Assembly (NCBI GenBank): GCA_038858525.1
Contig: JAWCFL010000034.1
Span: 1-17,044 of the forward strand
Length of the DNA: 17,044 nucleotides
DNA from: Candidatus Jordarchaeales archaeon
GTDB taxonomy: Archaea > Asgardarchaeota > Jordiarchaeia > Jordiarchaeales > Freyrarchaeaceae
Direction of reading: 5' to 3'
Shown here: one piece after another, positions 16 to 9,155 of the stretch
How positions within the stretch are numbered: the first letter of the stretch is position 1
Layout: each line of letters begins with the position of its first letter
The notes under the pieces: generated by a model
Databases searched by the model: none
Seen by the model: only the letters and a program-made list of their open reading frames with translations
Told to the model about the DNA's origin: nothing
Translations under genes and position numbers: made by a program

Positions 16-327
16 GTGGAGGAGGTGAGGGATGTGTTGTTGGGTTTGTTGGAGAAGTATTCGCGGGAGAACTCCAAGATGGATTTGGTTCTTCACATTG
101 TGTGGTCGGTTGTCGAGGCGCTTATACGTGACGCTGAGGAGTGTATGGTTGAGAACGTGCTGGATGACGTGTTGTCGCTTGGATACGCTCTTAGTTTGGT
201 TTCTCAGAGGCTGAGTAGTGATGAGAAGGAGTTGCTGAGGGGGGCGGAGAGGAAGCTGATGGGGGAAGTTAAGCGGGCGGTTAAAAGATGCATGATGAAA
301 GTTGCAAGAATACCTATAAGGGCTTGA
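16..327 (+). CDS. Hypothetical helical protein whose last codons and stop lie inside CRISPR repeat 1; possibly truncated by the array
   Basis: Frame is open from the window start. It has Glu/Leu/Val-rich helical composition and G-rich codons like other + strand genes here. Codons 301-327 (VARIPIRA*) come from the repeat. Start is uncertain (GTG 16, 25 or 34; GAGGTG at 22-27). Confidence 0.55.
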   Translation: MEEVRDVLLGLLEKYSRENSKMDLVLHIVWSVVEALIRDAEECMVENVLDDVLSLGYALSLVSQRLSSDEKELLRGAERKLMGEVKRAVKRCMMKVARIPIRA

Positions 328-531
328 AACCCGCTGAGCGAGGCGATTGGGGAGGGGAGGGAGGGGGTTGCAAGAATACCTATAAGGGCTTGAAACAACA
401 TTTTGCTTGATGAGCGCACGTTGGTCCGCAACGGTTGCAAGAATACCTATAAGGGCTTGAAACCCACGCTGCTGCCAGTACTGTTTCGCGGCGTTGACGA
501 GTTGCAAGAATTACCTATAAGGGCTTGAAAT
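301..531 (+). CRISPR. CRISPR array, 4 repeats / 3 spacers, repeat GTTGCAAGAATACCTATAAGGGCTTGAAAC (30 bp)
   Basis: Identical repeats at 301-330, 367-396 and 434-463. A variant terminal repeat at 501-531 has one extra T and a 3' C>T change. Unique spacers are 36, 37 and 37 bp. The GTTGCAA...TTGAAAC ends are typical of archaeal repeats and give + orientation. Confidence 0.95.
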
Positions 532-2944: not shown

Positions 2945-3747
2945 CTAGCGGGGATGGGAGGAAGGAGGAGCAGGGCCTGACGGAGGAACAGACGGAGGAA
3001 CAGCAGGTCGAGGAACAGTGGGTTGAGAAACACCATACCTCTGAAAGGTACTATAGAAAGCCACTGCCCAAAGTATCGAAGACACAAACATTAGTATTAA
3101 TAGGACGACACTAACAATGTTTAGGATTCCTGCTGCTAGAGTGACTGAGGGAGACCCTGTATCTTCTCTTACTGTGGTTCCAGCGATGCCAGAAGTGAGC
3201 AAGAATGCACCTAGAGCTGTGAGTGAGAAAAACAAGGGCCAAATCGTTGGTTGAGTGACGCGCACTAGAAAACCTAGAAAAGATGGACTCTGTTCTACTG
3301 ATAATAACATGAATATATATATGGAACCGGTCCTGTTAATCTCTCTATTAATATTAAAATATATAGTATGAGGGTCACTGGGGAGACAATAAGACCAATG
3401 ATGAATGTGACCATTCCAGAGGTTCTTCCTGTGGCTTTATGGATGCCGTAGAAGCCTAAGCTAATCAGAAGGACGTGCAGAAACAGGAAAATCCCCGTCA
3501 TCGCTGAAACAATCCCAAAAGTCGGCCAAACAGATTCAACGACAAAGAGGTAGTTAAAGAAGAGTAACATTGCCATGGAGTAAGGTATCGGACGTATTGC
3601 AATAAACGGGGATGATAATAAATAGGCGATATAATCACCTATTGAATATAAATTGCTGAACAAGATTATGTGGTAGACGAATATTGGAAAGGCTATTGTT
3701 CCGATTATTCCTCCGGCCATCCCCATTAGTAGCATTGCTCTGCTCAC
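2945..3747 (-). pseudogene. Polytopic membrane protein with Pro-rich C-tail, split into two ORFs (3747-3295 and 3310-2945) by a frameshift at an (AT)5 tract
   Basis: Both ORFs are strongly hydrophobic and overlap at (AT)5, 3313-3322. Deleting one AT unit gives a continuous ~266-aa protein (...LTGPVPYIFMLLSVEQ...). They could alternatively be two genes. Confidence 0.65.
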
Positions 3748-3806: not shown

Positions 3807-4244
3807 TAGTGGGTTGTTTGGTCTTGTTGGGGTTGTAGGGTGATTTTCGTTTAGCTGCGTGGGTGTGTTGGAGGCTTAAAGCGTTGTTTGAGCTAAAAGT
3901 GGATGCTGATCCTGCTTTCGAGAAGAGGGGGGAAGGCGATCCTGGCTTGCATTAAGAGGTGCCTCTTATCTGTCCCGTATTGTATAATCAGTAGTGATGG
4001 TGGATGGGGGTGAGGAGTTATGTTTCTATGTGGTTGGTGTTGACGAGTACGTTTGCGACTCGTAGAGGGGTCTTTATGGGAGGGGTTTCTAGGTTTGTGT
4101 TTTTGTTTTTCTTTGTGGGGTGGGGTTTGCTGGCGCTTGTTGTGTGGGTTTCGTGTGTTGCTGCTGTTGCGTGGGTTTTGGTGGTTATGTTTTTATTTTT
4201 GTTTTGTGTTGTTTTTTTGGAAGTTTATTTCTGGTGGTGTTGTT

Positions 4245-5684
4245 TTGGGGCGGACTGGGTCGACTTATAGGGCTAGGTTGGTTATGGTTTTTCATGCTTG
4301 TTTGGAGCTTCAGTCTGTTGATGGTGAGGTTCGTGTTGGTAGGCTTGCTGAGAGGGTTGATTTGACTGAGAGGGCTGTGAAGGATTATCTTGATGACCTT
4401 TCGAGTTTGGGTGTTTTGTCTTATAGGGGGGCGGGGAGGTATGTTGTTAATGAGGGTTTTGTTAAGAGTCTTGGTGAGGACTTGCTTTTTGAGCCCTCGT
4501 CTAGTGTTGTTATTGATGAGGGCTTGCTGCATGCTGGTTTGGTTGGTGTTGAGCCTGTTTCGAGGAAGGTTCAGCGTGTTTTGAGGAAGCTTGAGTTTCC
4601 CTTGGTTTCGGGGGAGGAGGTGAGGGAGCGGCTGGTTGCTGCGAGGGTTGGGGACTACGTTTTTCCGGTTAGGCTTTTGGGGGATGGGCTTGTTCTTCCG
4701 AGGTTTGCCGGTGACGTTCTTCTTGATGGTGTTTGGGTGGCTGGTTCTGCTCCTGCTCATAGTGTTCATAACTTTGTTCTTGGTGATTTTTCCGTGTTGA
4801 CTGTTGTTTGTCTGAGTGTTGGTGGCTTCGTGGGGCTGTTTGAGGGTGGTGTTCTTGATCATGAGAGGTCGGTTAGGAGGAGGATTCCTGACCTCCACTC
4901 CTTTAGGGGTGTGGAGCCCTTCGAGGAGGGGGACCCGTTCTTCGAGTTCTCGACGGACTTTCCGGAGCTTCTTCAGGCGGGGAGGAGTATTGCTGCGAGG
5001 TATCTTAGGGAGATTCAGCATTACAGGATGGGGATAAGGCTGATCGAGGAGTTTGGCGATAAGTTTGACTTCTACTTCCGGCTTGGGTCGCTTGTGCCTC
5101 ACGGCTTCCTCGTTGCCTCCAAGGTTCTGGTGAAGCTTAGGGATAAGTGTAACAGGTTGTTTTACGACCTGGTTAGGGTTGCAGGCGAGAAGGGGGTTAC
5201 GCTGGTAGGCGTTAGCCCCGTATCTATGGACAACGTTTTCTTCAGGGCGTGCAGCCAGGTGCTCGGCAAGATTCCGGGGAAGACGAACGACCTTAACTTT
5301 CTCTCCATTGTTTTGAGGGATAGGGACTCGACGTGCCTGATTGAGAGGGGGGAAGAGAAGGGGAAGCCTCCCGTGAGGGACGTCTACGAGTTTTACCTCT
5401 CGCGGAAGGGAATCGTGACGAAGTACGAGTTTGTGTCCAGGGATCCGCTGAGCGACCATAAGAGGGTGGCTGACGTAGCTTACACCCTGACCACGGCGCC
5501 TCTGAGGGAGCGGGAGGAGGCTGGGCCAAGCGTGGTCTCGGTGGCGAGGCAGGAGGCGGCGTTCAACCTTTCATCCCTCGAAAGGTCGGTTGAGCTAAGC
5601 CTCAGGGCGGGCTTCCTAGGAATGCTGGAGAAGATCCAGAGGAGGAGGGATGAGGAGAGGGCGAAGGAGGCGTTTGGAGGGTGA
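4245..5684 (+). CDS. N-terminal winged-HTH fused to a NurA-like (RNase H fold) domain, apparently lacking most catalytic residues
   Basis: Likely start is TTG 4245 after SD GGTGG; the track's 4053 start adds only low-complexity GT-rich sequence. HTH segment: VRVGRLAERVDLTERAVKDYLDDLSSLGVLSY. NurA-like blocks: WVAGS, REIQH, FRLGSL, LVGVS, NDLNFLSIVL, YEFYL...KYEF, GPSVVSVAR. It lies directly upstream of herA, the usual NurA partner. Confidence 0.75.
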   Translation: MGRTGSTYRARLVMVFHACLELQSVDGEVRVGRLAERVDLTERAVKDYLDDLSSLGVLSYRGAGRYVVNEGFVKSLGEDLLFEPSSSVVIDEGLLHAGLVGVEPVSRKVQRVLRKLEFPLVSGEEVRERLVAARVGDYVFPVRLLGDGLVLPRFAGDVLLDGVWVAGSAPAHSVHNFVLGDFSVLTVVCLSVGGFVGLFEGGVLDHERSVRRRIPDLHSFRGVEPFEEGDPFFEFSTDFPELLQAGRSIAARYLREIQHYRMGIRLIEEFGDKFDFYFRLGSLVPHGFLVASKVLVKLRDKCNRLFYDLVRVAGEKGVTLVGVSPVSMDNVFFRACSQVLGKIPGKTNDLNFLSIVLRDRDSTCLIERGEEKGKPPVRDVYEFYLSRKGIVTKYEFVSRDPLSDHKRVADVAYTLTTAPLREREEAGPSVVSVARQEAAFNLSSLERSVELSLRAGFLGMLEKIQRRRDEERAKEAFGG

Positions 5685-5689
5685 GGAGT

Positions 5690-7177
5690 ATGGGCGAGCG
5701 AGCCTTCGAGCTGGGAACGATAATATGTGAGGGCCAGACGCCTAACCACCTCGCCTTCTCTTTTCAGGTGGCTAGGGACGTCGAGGTTAAGGTTGGAGAG
5801 TACGTTGAGGTCCCGCTGGGCTTGAGCGTGATGGTTGGGCGCGTCTACTCGATTCACACTTATAACGAGTACTTTTCCAGCCCGGAGTTTCTCCAGTTCC
5901 ACCTCGAGGATGGGGTTCCGGTTCAGGCCCGCTTCCCGACGCGGATAGGAAGGTGGAGGGTGGCGAGGGTGAGGGTTGTTGGGGTGCTGCGGGGGGACAG
6001 GTTGCTGCCTCCCGAGGTTCCTCCAGAGCCGGGGGACACGGTTTACAGGGCTAAGCCCGAGCTTTTGGAGTCCTTCCTGAAGTTTAGGCCGGACGGGGTG
6101 TTTCTCGGGGTCATGAGGGGGAACAATGACGTTAAGGTTTTCCTGAACCCTGAGCTGCTTCTTCCATACCACGTGGCTGTTCTGGGGGCTACTGGGAGCG
6201 GAAAGTCCTATGCTGTAGGGGTGATCGTGGAGGAGCTTCTGGAGAAGGGGATGCCTGTGGTCGTCGTCGACCCTCACGGGGAGTACAGGTTTTTCTCGCA
6301 GAGGAACGATAACCCGGAGGAGGTTGAGAGGGCCAGGAGGATGGGGGTGACGCCCAGGGGTTTCCCGACCATGGTTTACTCGCTTGGGGAGGACGGGGAC
6401 AGGAAGCTGTCCATAAGCATAGATGACCTTAACCCCTACGCTCTGGCCGAGGTCTGCGACCTGAGCGACGCGCAGTCAGACCTCCTTTACCTGGCGTTCA
6501 GGAAGCTTGGCGGTGGAGGTTACGGGCTGGATGAGCTTGTCGGTGCGGTCAAGGCGGCGGCTAGGGAGTGGGGGTTTCAGAAGAACACGTTGACGGCGGT
6601 CCTCAGGAAGATACAGGCGCTGAACGAGTTCGTTTTTTTCGGGAAGAGTATAAGTGTGGGTGACCTCGTCAAGCCAGGCCACTTGTCTGTTCTAGACCTG
6701 AGTGGGGGGGTGGATGAGGAGATTAGGAGGACTGTTGTTGGAGTGGTTTTAGAGAGGATGTTTAACGCTAGGAGGAGGGGGGAGATTCCTCCAGTGGTGG
6801 TGGTCGTCGAGGAAAGCCACAGGTTCGCCCCTCAGGGGGTGAGGAGCTACTGTGGCTCGGTGCTGAGGAGGATCGCGAGGGAGGGGAGAAAGTTCGGGGT
6901 GACGCTTTGCCTGACCAGCCAGAGGGTTGCGGGGCTAGATAAGGACGTCCTGACGCAGTGTGGAACGAAGATCATCCTACGCATAGAGGGAGCCTACGAC
7001 ATAGAGTACCTCAAGCCGATCTTAGACTACGCCAGTGCTGATGAAGCTGAGAGGATACCTCTCCTACCTACGGGGACCGCCATGGTTACCGGAATGGCGA
7101 CGAGGACGCCGATTCTGGTGGATGTGAGGCCGAGAAAGACGAAGCACGGGGGAGGACACCAGGCGTTCTGGAGATAG
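5690..7177 (+). CDS. herA: HerA-family ATPase/helicase (HAS barrel + FtsK/HerA motor)
   Basis: N-terminal HAS-barrel-like region, Walker A HVAVLGATGSGKS, VVDPHGEY, Walker B VVVEESHRFAP, and AREGRKFG...TSQR. ATG 5690 follows SD GAGGAG, 5 nt after the NurA-like stop. Confidence 0.93.
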   Translation: MGERAFELGTIICEGQTPNHLAFSFQVARDVEVKVGEYVEVPLGLSVMVGRVYSIHTYNEYFSSPEFLQFHLEDGVPVQARFPTRIGRWRVARVRVVGVLRGDRLLPPEVPPEPGDTVYRAKPELLESFLKFRPDGVFLGVMRGNNDVKVFLNPELLLPYHVAVLGATGSGKSYAVGVIVEELLEKGMPVVVVDPHGEYRFFSQRNDNPEEVERARRMGVTPRGFPTMVYSLGEDGDRKLSISIDDLNPYALAEVCDLSDAQSDLLYLAFRKLGGGGYGLDELVGAVKAAAREWGFQKNTLTAVLRKIQALNEFVFFGKSISVGDLVKPGHLSVLDLSGGVDEEIRRTVVGVVLERMFNARRRGEIPPVVVVVEESHRFAPQGVRSYCGSVLRRIAREGRKFGVTLCLTSQRVAGLDKDVLTQCGTKIILRIEGAYDIEYLKPILDYASADEAERIPLLPTGTAMVTGMATRTPILVDVRPRKTKHGGGHQAFWR

Positions 7178-7369
7178 GAGCAGGAAGGACGTTAAGCGGA
7201 TAACGGGTCTGACGGGGTGCTGGTTCTCGAAAAAAGGGTTCTTTCGTGATGAACGCTGGGGTGGCTTCAACCAGCATCTCCACTTTTCACGCCTCGCGTT
7301 GTTGGAACGAAAGGGTCATTTATTCGTTCTGCTCATAGAGTGATTGTCCTTTTCGTGGTGGGCGGGATT

Positions 7370-8197
7370 GTGCCTTTGGGTTTGGTTGTGAAGGTTTACG
7401 CTTTGAACTCTGGGGGAGTGAAGCGCTTCTCAGGTCACCTTGTTAGAGGAGGGCTACTGGGATTTTTCAGCAGAGTTGACCCTGATCTCGCCGGTGCGCT
7501 TCATGCACCGGACCAGCTTAGGCCTTACAGTGTTTCTCCCATTTTTCCATTGGGGGAAAAGAGGATCCACGGAGACCTTTTACATGTTAAGACGGGGGAC
7601 GAGTTCCAGTTTCGCTTAGGATTCCTCGTGGATGACATCGGAAAGAGGCTACTCGAGCGGCTTTTCGACTTAAAGGTTAAGCTGGGAGAGGTAGAGTTCT
7701 CGCTGGTCGAAGTCAACCTGAGAAAGAAGAACTACGACGAGTTCGTTAAGGACGTGAACGTAAGCGACAGGTTTAGAGTGTTTTTCAGGACGCCGACGCA
7801 GCTCTCAGTGCGGGGCGTCGACTTCCCCTTCTTGTTCCCTGACCCACGCTACGTTTACCCCAGTATTGCGAGGCTCTGGAACGCCTTCGCCCCCGAGTAC
7901 GTTAGAGTCGACGTTGACGAGCTTTACAGGTGGGTTTCGGACAACGTTTACGTGCGCAACTACTCCCTCAGGACGGTGAACGTGACGATGGGGAAGGAGA
8001 GGAGGGTGGCGGGCTTCACGGGATACGCGGACTTCTACATGAAGAGCACCGACGGTTACGCTTCATGGGTCACGATCCTCTCAGAGTACGCCACATACTC
8101 AAACGTCGGAGTGAAGAGGACGGGGGGAATGGGCGTGGTGGACGTCGAGCCCCCAAAAAAGGGAAAAAGCGAAGCCGACTCCCCCCAGGATGCGTGA
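7370..8197 (+). CDS. cas6: CRISPR precursor RNA endoribonuclease Cas6
   Basis: Motifs GHLVRG, ALH...RPYSVSP, FRTPT, FPDP...SIARLWNAF and GFTG, plus the C-terminal Gly-rich loop NVGVKRTGGMG. Likely start is GTG 7370 (track start 7340). Confidence 0.93.
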   Translation: MPLGLVVKVYALNSGGVKRFSGHLVRGGLLGFFSRVDPDLAGALHAPDQLRPYSVSPIFPLGEKRIHGDLLHVKTGDEFQFRLGFLVDDIGKRLLERLFDLKVKLGEVEFSLVEVNLRKKNYDEFVKDVNVSDRFRVFFRTPTQLSVRGVDFPFLFPDPRYVYPSIARLWNAFAPEYVRVDVDELYRWVSDNVYVRNYSLRTVNVTMGKERRVAGFTGYADFYMKSTDGYASWVTILSEYATYSNVGVKRTGGMGVVDVEPPKKGKSEADSPQDA

Positions 8198-8277
8198 CTG
8201 GTTCTTGATGTTCAAAGCCACGGTGCAGTAGCCTGTGCGGCGAAAATTACCGTGAAGAGAGCCACGAGCTTCCACAC

Positions 8278-8385
8278 TTATCAGGGTTACTATCTCTCGA
8301 TTTAATTTGTAGCCGATTGAGGATTAGGGGTAAATACCGATGAACTTAAGTATCAGGGTTGTTGTCTCTCGATTTAATTTGTAGC
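8278..8385 (-). CRISPR. Candidate degenerate single-spacer mini-array, repeat ~GCTACAAATTAAATCGAGAGACAACAACCCTGATAC
   Basis: 35-bp direct repeats at 8279-8313 and 8351-8385 (3 mismatches) are separated by 37 unique bp. Minus-strand ends GCTACAA.../...TGATAC resemble GTTGCAA.../...TGAAAC. The unit begins about 80 bp after the cas6 stop. Confidence 0.5.
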
Positions 8386-8565
8386 GCTCGTCAAGTTTCC
8401 GCCCTCGCTCGACCCCTCCTTCAATAAGCCTTCTGGAAACTCTCAGTTGGTGCTTATTCTGGAGGTCCCGCGTTTTCCGGGCGCGAGAAGCCGTTACGCC
8501 ACACCTCGAAGACCCAACACGCTTCGAAGCAATCAAAGAAACACCCCGGGAACACTAACCATTGA

Positions 8566-9155
8566 AGCGCCGAAGCGCGAAGCCTGGGAGGATATCAAAG
8601 CCCTACAAGACAACTTCAACAAGTTGTACGAGGAGCAGGTTAGGCTCAGGGGGACTTTAGAAGCATGCTTGCTAGGGTTGATGCTTTGGAGAGGAATGTT
8701 GCTGAGCTGAGTGCGGGGCAAAAGAGGCTTGATGTGAAGTTTAATGGTCTTAGGGGAAGTATGCTTGCTGGTTTCGATTCTCTTATGAGTCGATTCTCTT
8801 AGGAGGTTTGCGGGTGTTACCTTTGAGGAGTTTGTGAGGGAGATGTTGAGCGGTTCTCTTGTTGGAATGAATGTTCTGCCTGAAGGAGAGCGCTTGGAGA
8901 GACGGGTGCTTGATGAACCTTTTTACGAGGACCCTTTGATGGTTGGAGAAGTGACGGCGCACGCCGAGAGCGGCGAGGAAGTCGATAAGCTTCTTGGAAG
9001 GGCTAGGGTTGTCGAGGAGAAGTATGGAAGGGGGCCCATGTTGTTCCTTGTGATTCTGACGGCGATGAGGGAGGCGGCTAGGGATAAGAGATCTCTCCAG
9101 GCAACATAAAATAGAGTTAATTTTTGGGAGGAGGTTTAACCCGGGTGGGATGTGA
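8566..9155 (+). pseudogene. Degraded coiled-coil + PD-(D/E)XK-like protein (DUF3782-type archaeal family)
   Basis: Stitched frames read WEDIKALQDNFNKLYEEQVRLR / DFRSMLARVDALERNVAEL...AGFDSL / RRFAGVTFEEFVREML...EDPLMVGEVTAHAESGEEVDKLLGRARVVEEKYGRGPMLFLVILTA / IRDLSRQHKIELIFGR. Frameshifts are at ~8650 (G5), 8774-8801 (12-bp duplication) and ~9083. The family is recognised from memory of the pattern. Confidence 0.7.

Follow-up and report, generated by a model that had tools for sequence, protein, structure and literature searches.

An Asgard archaeal gene pair of HerA and a predicted nuclease-dead, winged-helix NurA-fold protein at CRISPR loci, with an operator-like palindrome apparently common to the spacer-acquisition operon

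The gene pair considered here, termed X and herA, lies in a 17,044-nucleotide stretch of DNA from a Candidatus Jordarchaeales archaeon. This stretch (the window) is the whole 17-kb contig C34 of a 2.09-Mb metagenome-assembled genome (G000). Three genes of the window are encoded on the same strand between positions 4245 and 8197: gene X (4245-5684, + strand; 479 aa), the gene for a HerA ATPase/translocase (5690-7177, +; 495 aa) and that for Cas6, an endoribonuclease that processes CRISPR RNA (crRNA; 7340-8197, +; ∼277-285 aa). The start codon of X is TTG, supported by the MGRTGSTYRARL N-termini of its homologues, and its stop codon (TGA, 5682-5684) is separated by a 5-nt gap from the ATG of HerA at 5690; in relatives, overlaps of X and HerA reach 26 nt. 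The spacing between HerA and cas6 is 162-186 nt, depending on the choice of start. A repeat-spacer-repeat unit follows cas6 at 8279-8385, and no mre11, rad50 or cas5/7/8/10 gene was found within the window. The coordinates therefore bear out the layout described in an earlier reading of this DNA from its letters (the sequence-only reading), namely three co-oriented genes with 5 nt between the first two and ∼190 nt to cas6, followed by a repeat-spacer-repeat unit, in a window free of mre11/rad50 and cas5/7/8/10.

The same reading had described X as a helix-turn-helix (HTH)-fused, dead NurA (“HTH-dNurA”). X gave no Pfam match at an E value of 0.01 and none in NCBIfam or PADLOC. A six-frame search of the genome with PF09376 at E ≤ 1 returned C28, C10, C56 and C41, and X was not among its matches. 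Given this lack of family matches, fold and profile evidence was needed for the label. An AlphaFold2 model of X, built with 16 homologues, gave a mean predicted local distance difference test (pLDDT) value of 69; in it, a winged-HTH head (residues ∼4-84) is joined through a disordered linker to a NurA-fold domain (∼112-420). When residues 112-420 were compared with SsoNurA (2ygk_B), a Z score of 15.4 and a root mean square deviation of 3.7 were obtained over 225 aligned residues; other HerA-NurA complexes ranked under 2ygk, and Foldseek related the model to 2ygk with an E value of 3e-6. Residues 4-84 matched winged helices of the IclR/DtxR/MarR type (Z 10-11). At the level of profiles, hhalign aligned the X family with canonical NurA at 98.9% probability (E 1e-17), with X being ∼13% identical to SsoNurA. 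X thus falls short of the gathering score of the NurA family hidden Markov model (PF09376) but has the NurA fold. A search of the PDB sequences with the X profile yielded weak winged-HTH matches and nothing else, and no RNA-binding domain was seen in X.

The catalytic residues of SsoNurA are D58, E116 and D133, plus Y298/K202 (PMC3326311). The equivalent positions of X were located by profile-profile alignment (hhalign) to canonical NurA. At the D133 position, which is aligned with high confidence, the X family has a variable, non-acidic residue (L/Q/M/S/N/K) ahead of a conserved GS-VPH motif. A small residue, alanine or another, occupies the D58 position in both plausible registers, at low hhalign confidence; the E116 position is an invariant histidine (H259), with an invariant glutamate three residues earlier, and the Y298 and “EAD” positions are lost. 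Catalytic carboxylates matching D58, E116 and D133 are accordingly not found in X, whereas the structural motifs of NurA (GS-VPH, RDT/NDL and PSV) are retained. The modeled fold, the winged helix and the replaced carboxylates support the earlier description of X as a predicted HTH-fused, nuclease-dead NurA-fold protein. With a dead NurA site in X, the pair cannot degrade DNA through that site.

When the X-family profile was compared with 1.8 billion representative proteins, only 54 were retrieved, the weakest of which were Pfam-positive NurA proteins (E 1e-9 to 1e-4). The family is confined to Asgard archaea, where X was found in 28 of 400 genomes, with strong matches in ∼20; its members are annotated as hypothetical proteins by NCBI. 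Asgard NurA proteins were described as completely uncharacterized in a 2026 review (PMC13748450), and X adds an unannotated, divergent NurA paralogue to these archaea. As a separate observation, proteins of ∼500 aa from genomes of family f13 (L084:8148-9650, L085:8043-9545 and L087:9091-10590) matched the C-terminal half of the X profile (E 1e-11 to 1e-13) and have no HerA neighbor. They were excluded from the X family on both counts, the profile match being weak, and may represent a NurA-like sister family that has a different partner.

The HerA protein matched DUF87 with an E value of 1e-31, together with HAS-barrel and HerA_C, and has a HAS barrel and a RecA-like core with intact Walker A, Walker B and arginine-finger regions. 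Residues G166, T168, G169, G171 and K172, E374 and E375, and R397-K401 were invariant across 12 X-linked HerA proteins. HerA scored far under the cut-off of each NCBIfam HerA equivalog. It matched PDLC01055, the “Type III coevolved” PADLOC model, at 1e-25, and generic HerA models matched it better. In a predicted complex of HerA with the NurA-like domain of X, the median score was 0.29 (mark, 0.32), which speaks neither for nor against their contact.

Conservation of the neighborhood, which the sequence-only reading had put forward as the means of checking its proposal, was assessed by all-against-all clustering of neighbor proteins. HerA followed X in 17/17 genomes in which the downstream side of X was visible, so that the two were always paired. 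The other conserved neighbors were Cas6, located directly after or flanking X-HerA in 7 genomes of 5 families, and a DUF2797-cas1-cas2-cas4 module (4 genomes, 3 families); there were no others. Using Pfam-based cas coordinates and an array scan, a cas gene or array was found ≤10 kb from X in 15 of the 17 informative genomes. For comparison, cas and array regions occupy ∼2-3% of the complete genome G116 (an estimate from the coordinates listed), and the CRISPR adjacency of X-HerA is far above chance. Several short X contigs terminate in an array beside X, and in the sister strain L011, an array of at least 58 repeats is present ∼5 kb upstream of X. In G007, in which X is 41% identical, the trio heads a full type I-A operon with the order X-HerA-Cas6, Csa5, Cas7, two unassigned genes where Cas5 and Cas8 would be expected, Cas3′, Cas3″, Csa3 and Cas4. 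X-HerA is tied to CRISPR loci in general, with an adjacency to cas6 that is frequent but breakable; the suggestion that proximity to cas6 might be incidental does not agree with this recurrence of cas6 and arrays across Asgard families. Small arrays flank the pair in a second lineage as well: HerA of G307 is directly followed by a mini-array (L079:7096-7196) with two repeats of the type that the host itself uses, and the main array begins ∼150 bp upstream of X.

Cas6 itself exceeded the cut-off of TIGR01877 (67.6 bits; cut-off 58.65) and of PF10040 (E 1e-13, 52 bits; cut-off 25), and matched several PADLOC Cas6 models. It is the orthologue of the sole or main Cas6 in related genomes. In a Cas6 tree, the X-adjacent proteins formed no clade, each being the usual Cas6 of its lineage, and the window protein grouped with the sole Cas6 of g3 genomes, which is encoded away from X there. 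The likely picture is of an ordinary crRNA-processing enzyme that often travels with X-HerA and is no special partner of it.

The genome contains three Pfam-positive NurA-HerA pairs besides X-HerA, none of which is near cas genes. One of these belongs to an operon on C28 that encodes canonical NurA, HerA, a Metallophos (Mre11-type) protein and a Rad50 with a zinc hook. The case that the sequence-only reading had named as fatal to its proposal, namely that the pair is the sole housekeeping nurA-herA copy, thus does not hold. The housekeeping HerA of this operon reads as two overlapping open reading frames (ORFs) of 411 and 215 aa (C28:17917-19712 of G000), which could reflect a frameshift or an intron, mRNA introns being known from this genome.

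Interference modules are present on other contigs of the genome. C33 carries a full type I locus with an array, a DUF2797-like gene, Cas1, Cas4, Cas7, Cas3 and Cas6; a further Cas7 and Csa3 are encoded on C19, and type III RAMP clusters on C45, C49 and C50. The description of the module as “without effector genes” is true of the short contig and not of the organism. The alternative offered by the same reading, that of an accessory cassette working in trans, fits the type I and type III effector modules found on these contigs.

Comparison of the 250 nt upstream of X across genomes revealed a 14-bp palindrome, with the consensus GGAAATATATTTCC, in 16 loci of 9 families (G000, G114-G118, G121, G001, G005, G007, G071, G080, G307, G060 and the metagenome loci P0011 and P0014). 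The palindrome is positioned 11-30 nt before the X start codon, in intergenic DNA that is otherwise unalignable. The copy in the window, GGAAGTTTATTTCT (4219-4232), lies 13 nt before the start codon and has 3 mismatches, and is listed here as a candidate operator. One match of this quality is at the level of chance (0.6 expected in the window). Given that the window copy alone is no better than chance, the evidence resides in the conserved position across loci. As a further property of this region, the ∼170 nt ahead of X (4075-4244) are extremely G+T-rich, and A and C make up 8 and 7%, respectively, of the 250 nt upstream. Part of the tract is common with G114, and a T-rich version is found in G116.

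A position weight matrix (PWM) derived from the X-upstream sites was scanned over the whole 2.09-Mb genome. The top match genome-wide was C33:2193, located 49 nt upstream of the first gene of the cas1 operon, which is DUF2797-like. The palindrome was likewise found upstream of the adaptation operon (DUF2797-cas1-cas4) in G000, G114-G121 and G307, and in weaker form in G007, with PWM scores of 19-24 in G114, G115, G116-G121 and G307; such candidate operators are often placed at the CRISPR leader edge. As a control, 28 cas1 loci from 19 X-negative Asgard genomes (96 kb) gave 1 strong match, in G006. An alternative control set of 30 DUF2797 loci from X-negative genomes was discarded in favor of the cas1 loci, as it was not cas1-linked. 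From these sequence comparisons, X-HerA and the adaptation operon appear to have a common operator.

In Sulfolobus islandicus, a palindrome at the promoters of adaptation genes and of nurA-herA is bound by Csa3a (PMC5587795). Csa3 was not over cut-off in G116, G117, G118, G120, G121 or G307, all of which have the palindrome at both promoters, and G116 and G307 are 100% complete. Given that X is present with the motif, has a winged helix and belongs to a fold family whose members are dimeric (PMC3326311), X would be the best candidate for the protein that binds the palindrome.

Taken together, the shared palindrome points to a functional tie of X-HerA to the adaptation genes rather than to Cas6, and a role on the adaptation side seems most likely. 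The reading that we favor, and hold to be probable, is that X-HerA belongs with the CRISPR accessory pairs of the Cas-HerA/Cas-NurA kind, as a form specific to Asgard archaea that is co-regulated with spacer acquisition. Here, a dimer of X would cap the HerA hexamer as NurA does, and the complex would constitute a DNA-end-loading machine that translocates along or unwinds DNA without cutting it. In vitro, DNA is unwound by a complex of HerA with NurA D58A. The palindrome would be bound by both winged helices of the X dimer, and X would thereby control the spacer-acquisition operon as well as its own. The module may then serve adaptation, either as a provider or handler of DNA substrates for Cas4/Cas1-Cas2 or, alternatively, through licensing of Cas4/Cas1-Cas2 expression when free DNA ends appear. 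The type I and III effectors with which it would act in trans are encoded elsewhere in the genome.

Several points weigh against this interpretation. The X family is known from sequence and predicted structure alone, and the mean pLDDT of the X model is only 69. The alignment of motif I (the D58 region) has low hhalign confidence, and the replacements in the pocket (A169, H259, H286 and E256) are invariant, so that this pocket might conceivably host another chemistry. That X binds the palindrome is suggested by co-occurrence only. The operator copy of the window is weak (3 mismatches, PWM 16.1, genome rank 9), and most genomes with the palindrome at both sites belong to one order, such that the counts are not independent. 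No palindrome was detected upstream of X in G295, G294, G291 and G310 at the threshold used, with a short upstream sequence or an X start that was not placed in the last three; the recognition helix of G295 is conserved although its X has no palindrome. At the level of RNA, one metatranscriptome yielded three short contigs, 95-98% alike, that cover parts of X, HerA and cas6, and one raw-read run gave 7 reads, for which DNA carry-over is possible; this coverage is too thin for statements on co-transcription, strand or processing.

A more specific form of the favored reading, in which X-HerA would act as a switch that senses DNA ends and licenses spacer acquisition, is tentative and on present evidence rather unlikely to hold in full. 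In the rest state of such a switch, X dimers would occupy the GGAAATATATTTCC operators of their own operon and of the DUF2797-cas1-cas2-cas4 operon. Ends of invader DNA would load HerA-X in the manner of NurA-HerA, the operators would be freed and adaptation would be turned on. The nuclease-dead complex would unwind the invader DNA and pass it to Cas4/Cas1-Cas2. If true, this would be a translocase-driven transcription factor derived from a dead repair nuclease, and a new coupling of invader detection to CRISPR memory.

Among other explanations, the one that survives best, itself unlikely, is that X-HerA is a stand-alone anti-virus system, like Sir2-HerA or DUF4297-HerA, that lies near CRISPR loci through the clustering of defense genes in islands. 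The HerA matches many PADLOC HerA models, and TdpAB (8wet_G), which we take to be a HerA-NurA-type defense complex, is among the closest folds to X. Toxin-antitoxin, HEPN/MNT and PIN genes are found near X-HerA in several loci, but only cas6, the cas1 module and arrays recur as neighbors from family to family, with no other defense genes among them. HerA is known to pair with diverse effectors (PMC11514289); here, however, the would-be effector is X, which is without the NurA catalytic residues, and the palindrome, found at the adaptation operon as well, speaks for a functional tie over mere co-location.

It is also conceivable, at a still lower level of probability, that the palindrome is bound by another lineage-specific regulator and that the winged helix of X does another job, such as making non-specific contacts with DNA or with HerA. 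X-HerA would then still be co-regulated with adaptation, and X would not be the regulator. This explanation draws on the indirect nature of the link between X and the motif, which is one of co-occurrence, on the X-bearing genomes without the palindrome and on X-negative G006, which has the palindrome near cas1. It has to contend with the lack of the obvious candidate, Csa3, in six genomes that have the motif at both promoters and of which two are 100% complete; with a palindrome that hugs the X start codon in distant families; and with the suitability of NurA-fold dimers for a palindromic site (PMC3326311).

We regard as improbable the proposal that X-HerA is a spare DNA-repair paralogue for end resection or branch migration, with a CRISPR position devoid of meaning. 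The nuclease residues required for resection are missing from X, 15/17 informative loci are CRISPR-adjacent and the presence of X in so few Asgard genomes is unlike that of a core repair gene; moreover, none of the other three NurA-HerA pairs of the genome is near cas genes, and one is the mre11-rad50 operon. These observations stand against a fold and a gene pairing that are those of repair NurA-HerA and against the occurrence of several NurA paralogues per Asgard genome.

The least tenable explanation, and one to which we give very little credence, is that put forward first by the sequence-only reading, an effector-less, undescribed and self-contained CRISPR system in which HerA and a dead NurA are guided by Cas6-processed RNAs of the adjacent mini-array: the X-HerA-Cas6 order does recur in 5 Asgard families, a repeat-spacer-repeat unit does follow cas6 in the window and the mini-array of G307 comes right after HerA, but the X-adjacent Cas6 proteins are ordinary, with no clade of their own and a g3 orthologue located elsewhere, complete type I and III effector sets are available in the genome and in cis in the type I-A operon of G007, X has no RNA-binding domain and the repeat unit of the window is doubtful.

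The two repeats of this unit (8279-8313 and 8351-8385; 35 nt each) agree at 32/35 positions and enclose a 37-nt spacer. This CRISPR-like geometry falls within the size range of arrays (repeats of 23-47 nt with spacers of similar size) at the minimum possible. Strains L011 and L012, which are 99% identical, carry the same single spacer, and the unit is absent from the syntenic site in the same-genus genome G114. The repeat core has no other copy in the genome, nor in the collections of genomes, metagenomes and viral contigs that were searched; it does not align with the repeats of the lineage, is without their stem and ATTGAAAG end, and forms no hairpin beyond shuffled controls. Neither a relation to known repeat families nor turnover was found. 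Its status as a working array or partner of Cas6 is therefore doubtful. No evidence was found that the unit splits a gene: when one repeat and the spacer are deleted, the only frame that opens is an unconvincing one of 111 aa, antisense to the cas6 end.

A comparable structure is found at 1919-2031 (− strand), where an exact 37-nt duplication surrounds a 39-nt insert inside the 5′ part of an AAA ATPase gene (1074-1925, −). The insertion truncates this gene, removing its N-terminal ∼44 codons, and once 76 nt are removed, its frame is colinear with the 327-aa orthologue of G114. The structure looks like an off-target spacer integration, and the unit at 8279-8385 may be an older scar of the same kind.

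The CRISPR context of the module within the window also includes a four-repeat array with a 30-nt type I repeat at 301-530 (+ strand). Its repeat is the same as that of an 8-copy array beside cas1 on C33, and its first repeat overlaps the end of the ORF at 16-327. The array has three spacers, as compared with one in the 99%-identical L011 (6183-6270), the two additional spacers being at the 5′ end. Given that the spacer common to both adjoins the degenerate last repeat, the two 5′ spacers appear to have been recently gained (or lost). On C33, positions 1026-1798 (L117) form a composite in which eight 30-nt repeats (1026-1515) abut four 36-nt stem-loop repeats (1542-1798), the latter being the repeat of the large array beside the X locus in L011. 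The spacers of the three window arrays gave no significant match in the genome or the fetched loci beyond themselves and the sister strains.

The remaining genes of the window encode the AAA ATPase, membrane proteins, HdrABC-like proteins, a cyclase and a metallophosphatase. A mobile-element origin of the module was rejected, as its flanks are syntenic with G114 and no integrase was found among the window ORFs scanned. At 2945-3747 (−), two overlapping membrane-protein ORFs (121 and 150 aa) correspond to a single 266-aa gene in L011 and could result from a frameshift, an assembly error or a small intron. Between cas6 and the Hdr genes are two small ORFs, at 8447-8710 (87 aa) and 8834-9109 (91 aa). 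Both are called as genes in sister strains, only the 91-aa ORF is conserved in G114, and no family match was obtained for either. A segment of ∼26 nt occurs twice (8660-8685 and 8756-8781), just downstream of these ORFs and between them.

CRISPR-associated HerA/NurA pairs have been published as accessory genes of type I and III systems with no function assigned (PMC3973734, PMC6546367, PMC10910872), and the pair can thus not be called undescribed, as had been supposed. Cas HerA/Cas NurA of Thermoproteales and other crenarchaea were reported by Vestergaard 2014 (PMC3973734) and as clusters 57/58 by Shah 2018 (PMC6546367), with a Pyrobaculum report being cited there. Such pairs have been catalogued for more than a decade, and no experimental test of their role was found in the literature. 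Like them, X-HerA is a HerA-NurA-type pair that is always together, in or beside type I and III cas cassettes, and separate from the housekeeping copy linked to mre11-rad50. As compared with the published descriptions of crenarchaeal Cas NurA, X is missed by the Pfam NurA and PADLOC models, with PADLOC holding the corresponding “Type III coevolved” HerA model; it has an N-terminal winged helix, is without the catalytic D-E-D and is restricted to Asgard archaea. The operator-like palindrome common with the adaptation operon is a further difference from the crenarchaeal pairs.

With canonical NurA-HerA (SsoNurA 2YGK, PMC3326311; Thermococcus kodakarensis 9X1L-N), X-HerA shares the RNase H-like NurA fold, the coupling of the two genes and a HerA with a HAS barrel and RecA-like core. 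It differs in having no mre11-rad50 neighbors, in the replacement of the D58, D133 and Y298 positions and of E116 by histidine, and in the extra winged HTH and linker of X. In the Csa3a regulon of S. islandicus (PMC5587795), regulation is by Csa3a, a CARF-winged HTH protein, and the NurA-HerA pairs are enzymes active in repair. By contrast, Csa3 is absent from several motif-bearing genomes here, and the candidate regulator is the NurA-like X, the binding of which is predicted. In Sir2-HerA-type systems, the HerA hexamer scaffolds and activates the effector (PMC11514289). X-HerA resembles Sir2-HerA in joining a HerA ATPase to a variable partner encoded just upstream or downstream in defense neighborhoods, and is unlike it in that neither toxicity nor catalysis is predicted for X and that the conserved context is CRISPR in particular.

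The Asgard form narrows the role of CRISPR-linked HerA-NurA pairs in three ways: the nuclease is gone, a DNA-binding head is added and a palindrome is held in common with the spacer-acquisition operon. What is new with respect to the known systems is the dead site, the winged-HTH fusion, the restriction to Asgard archaea, the invisibility to family models and the operator common with the adaptation genes.

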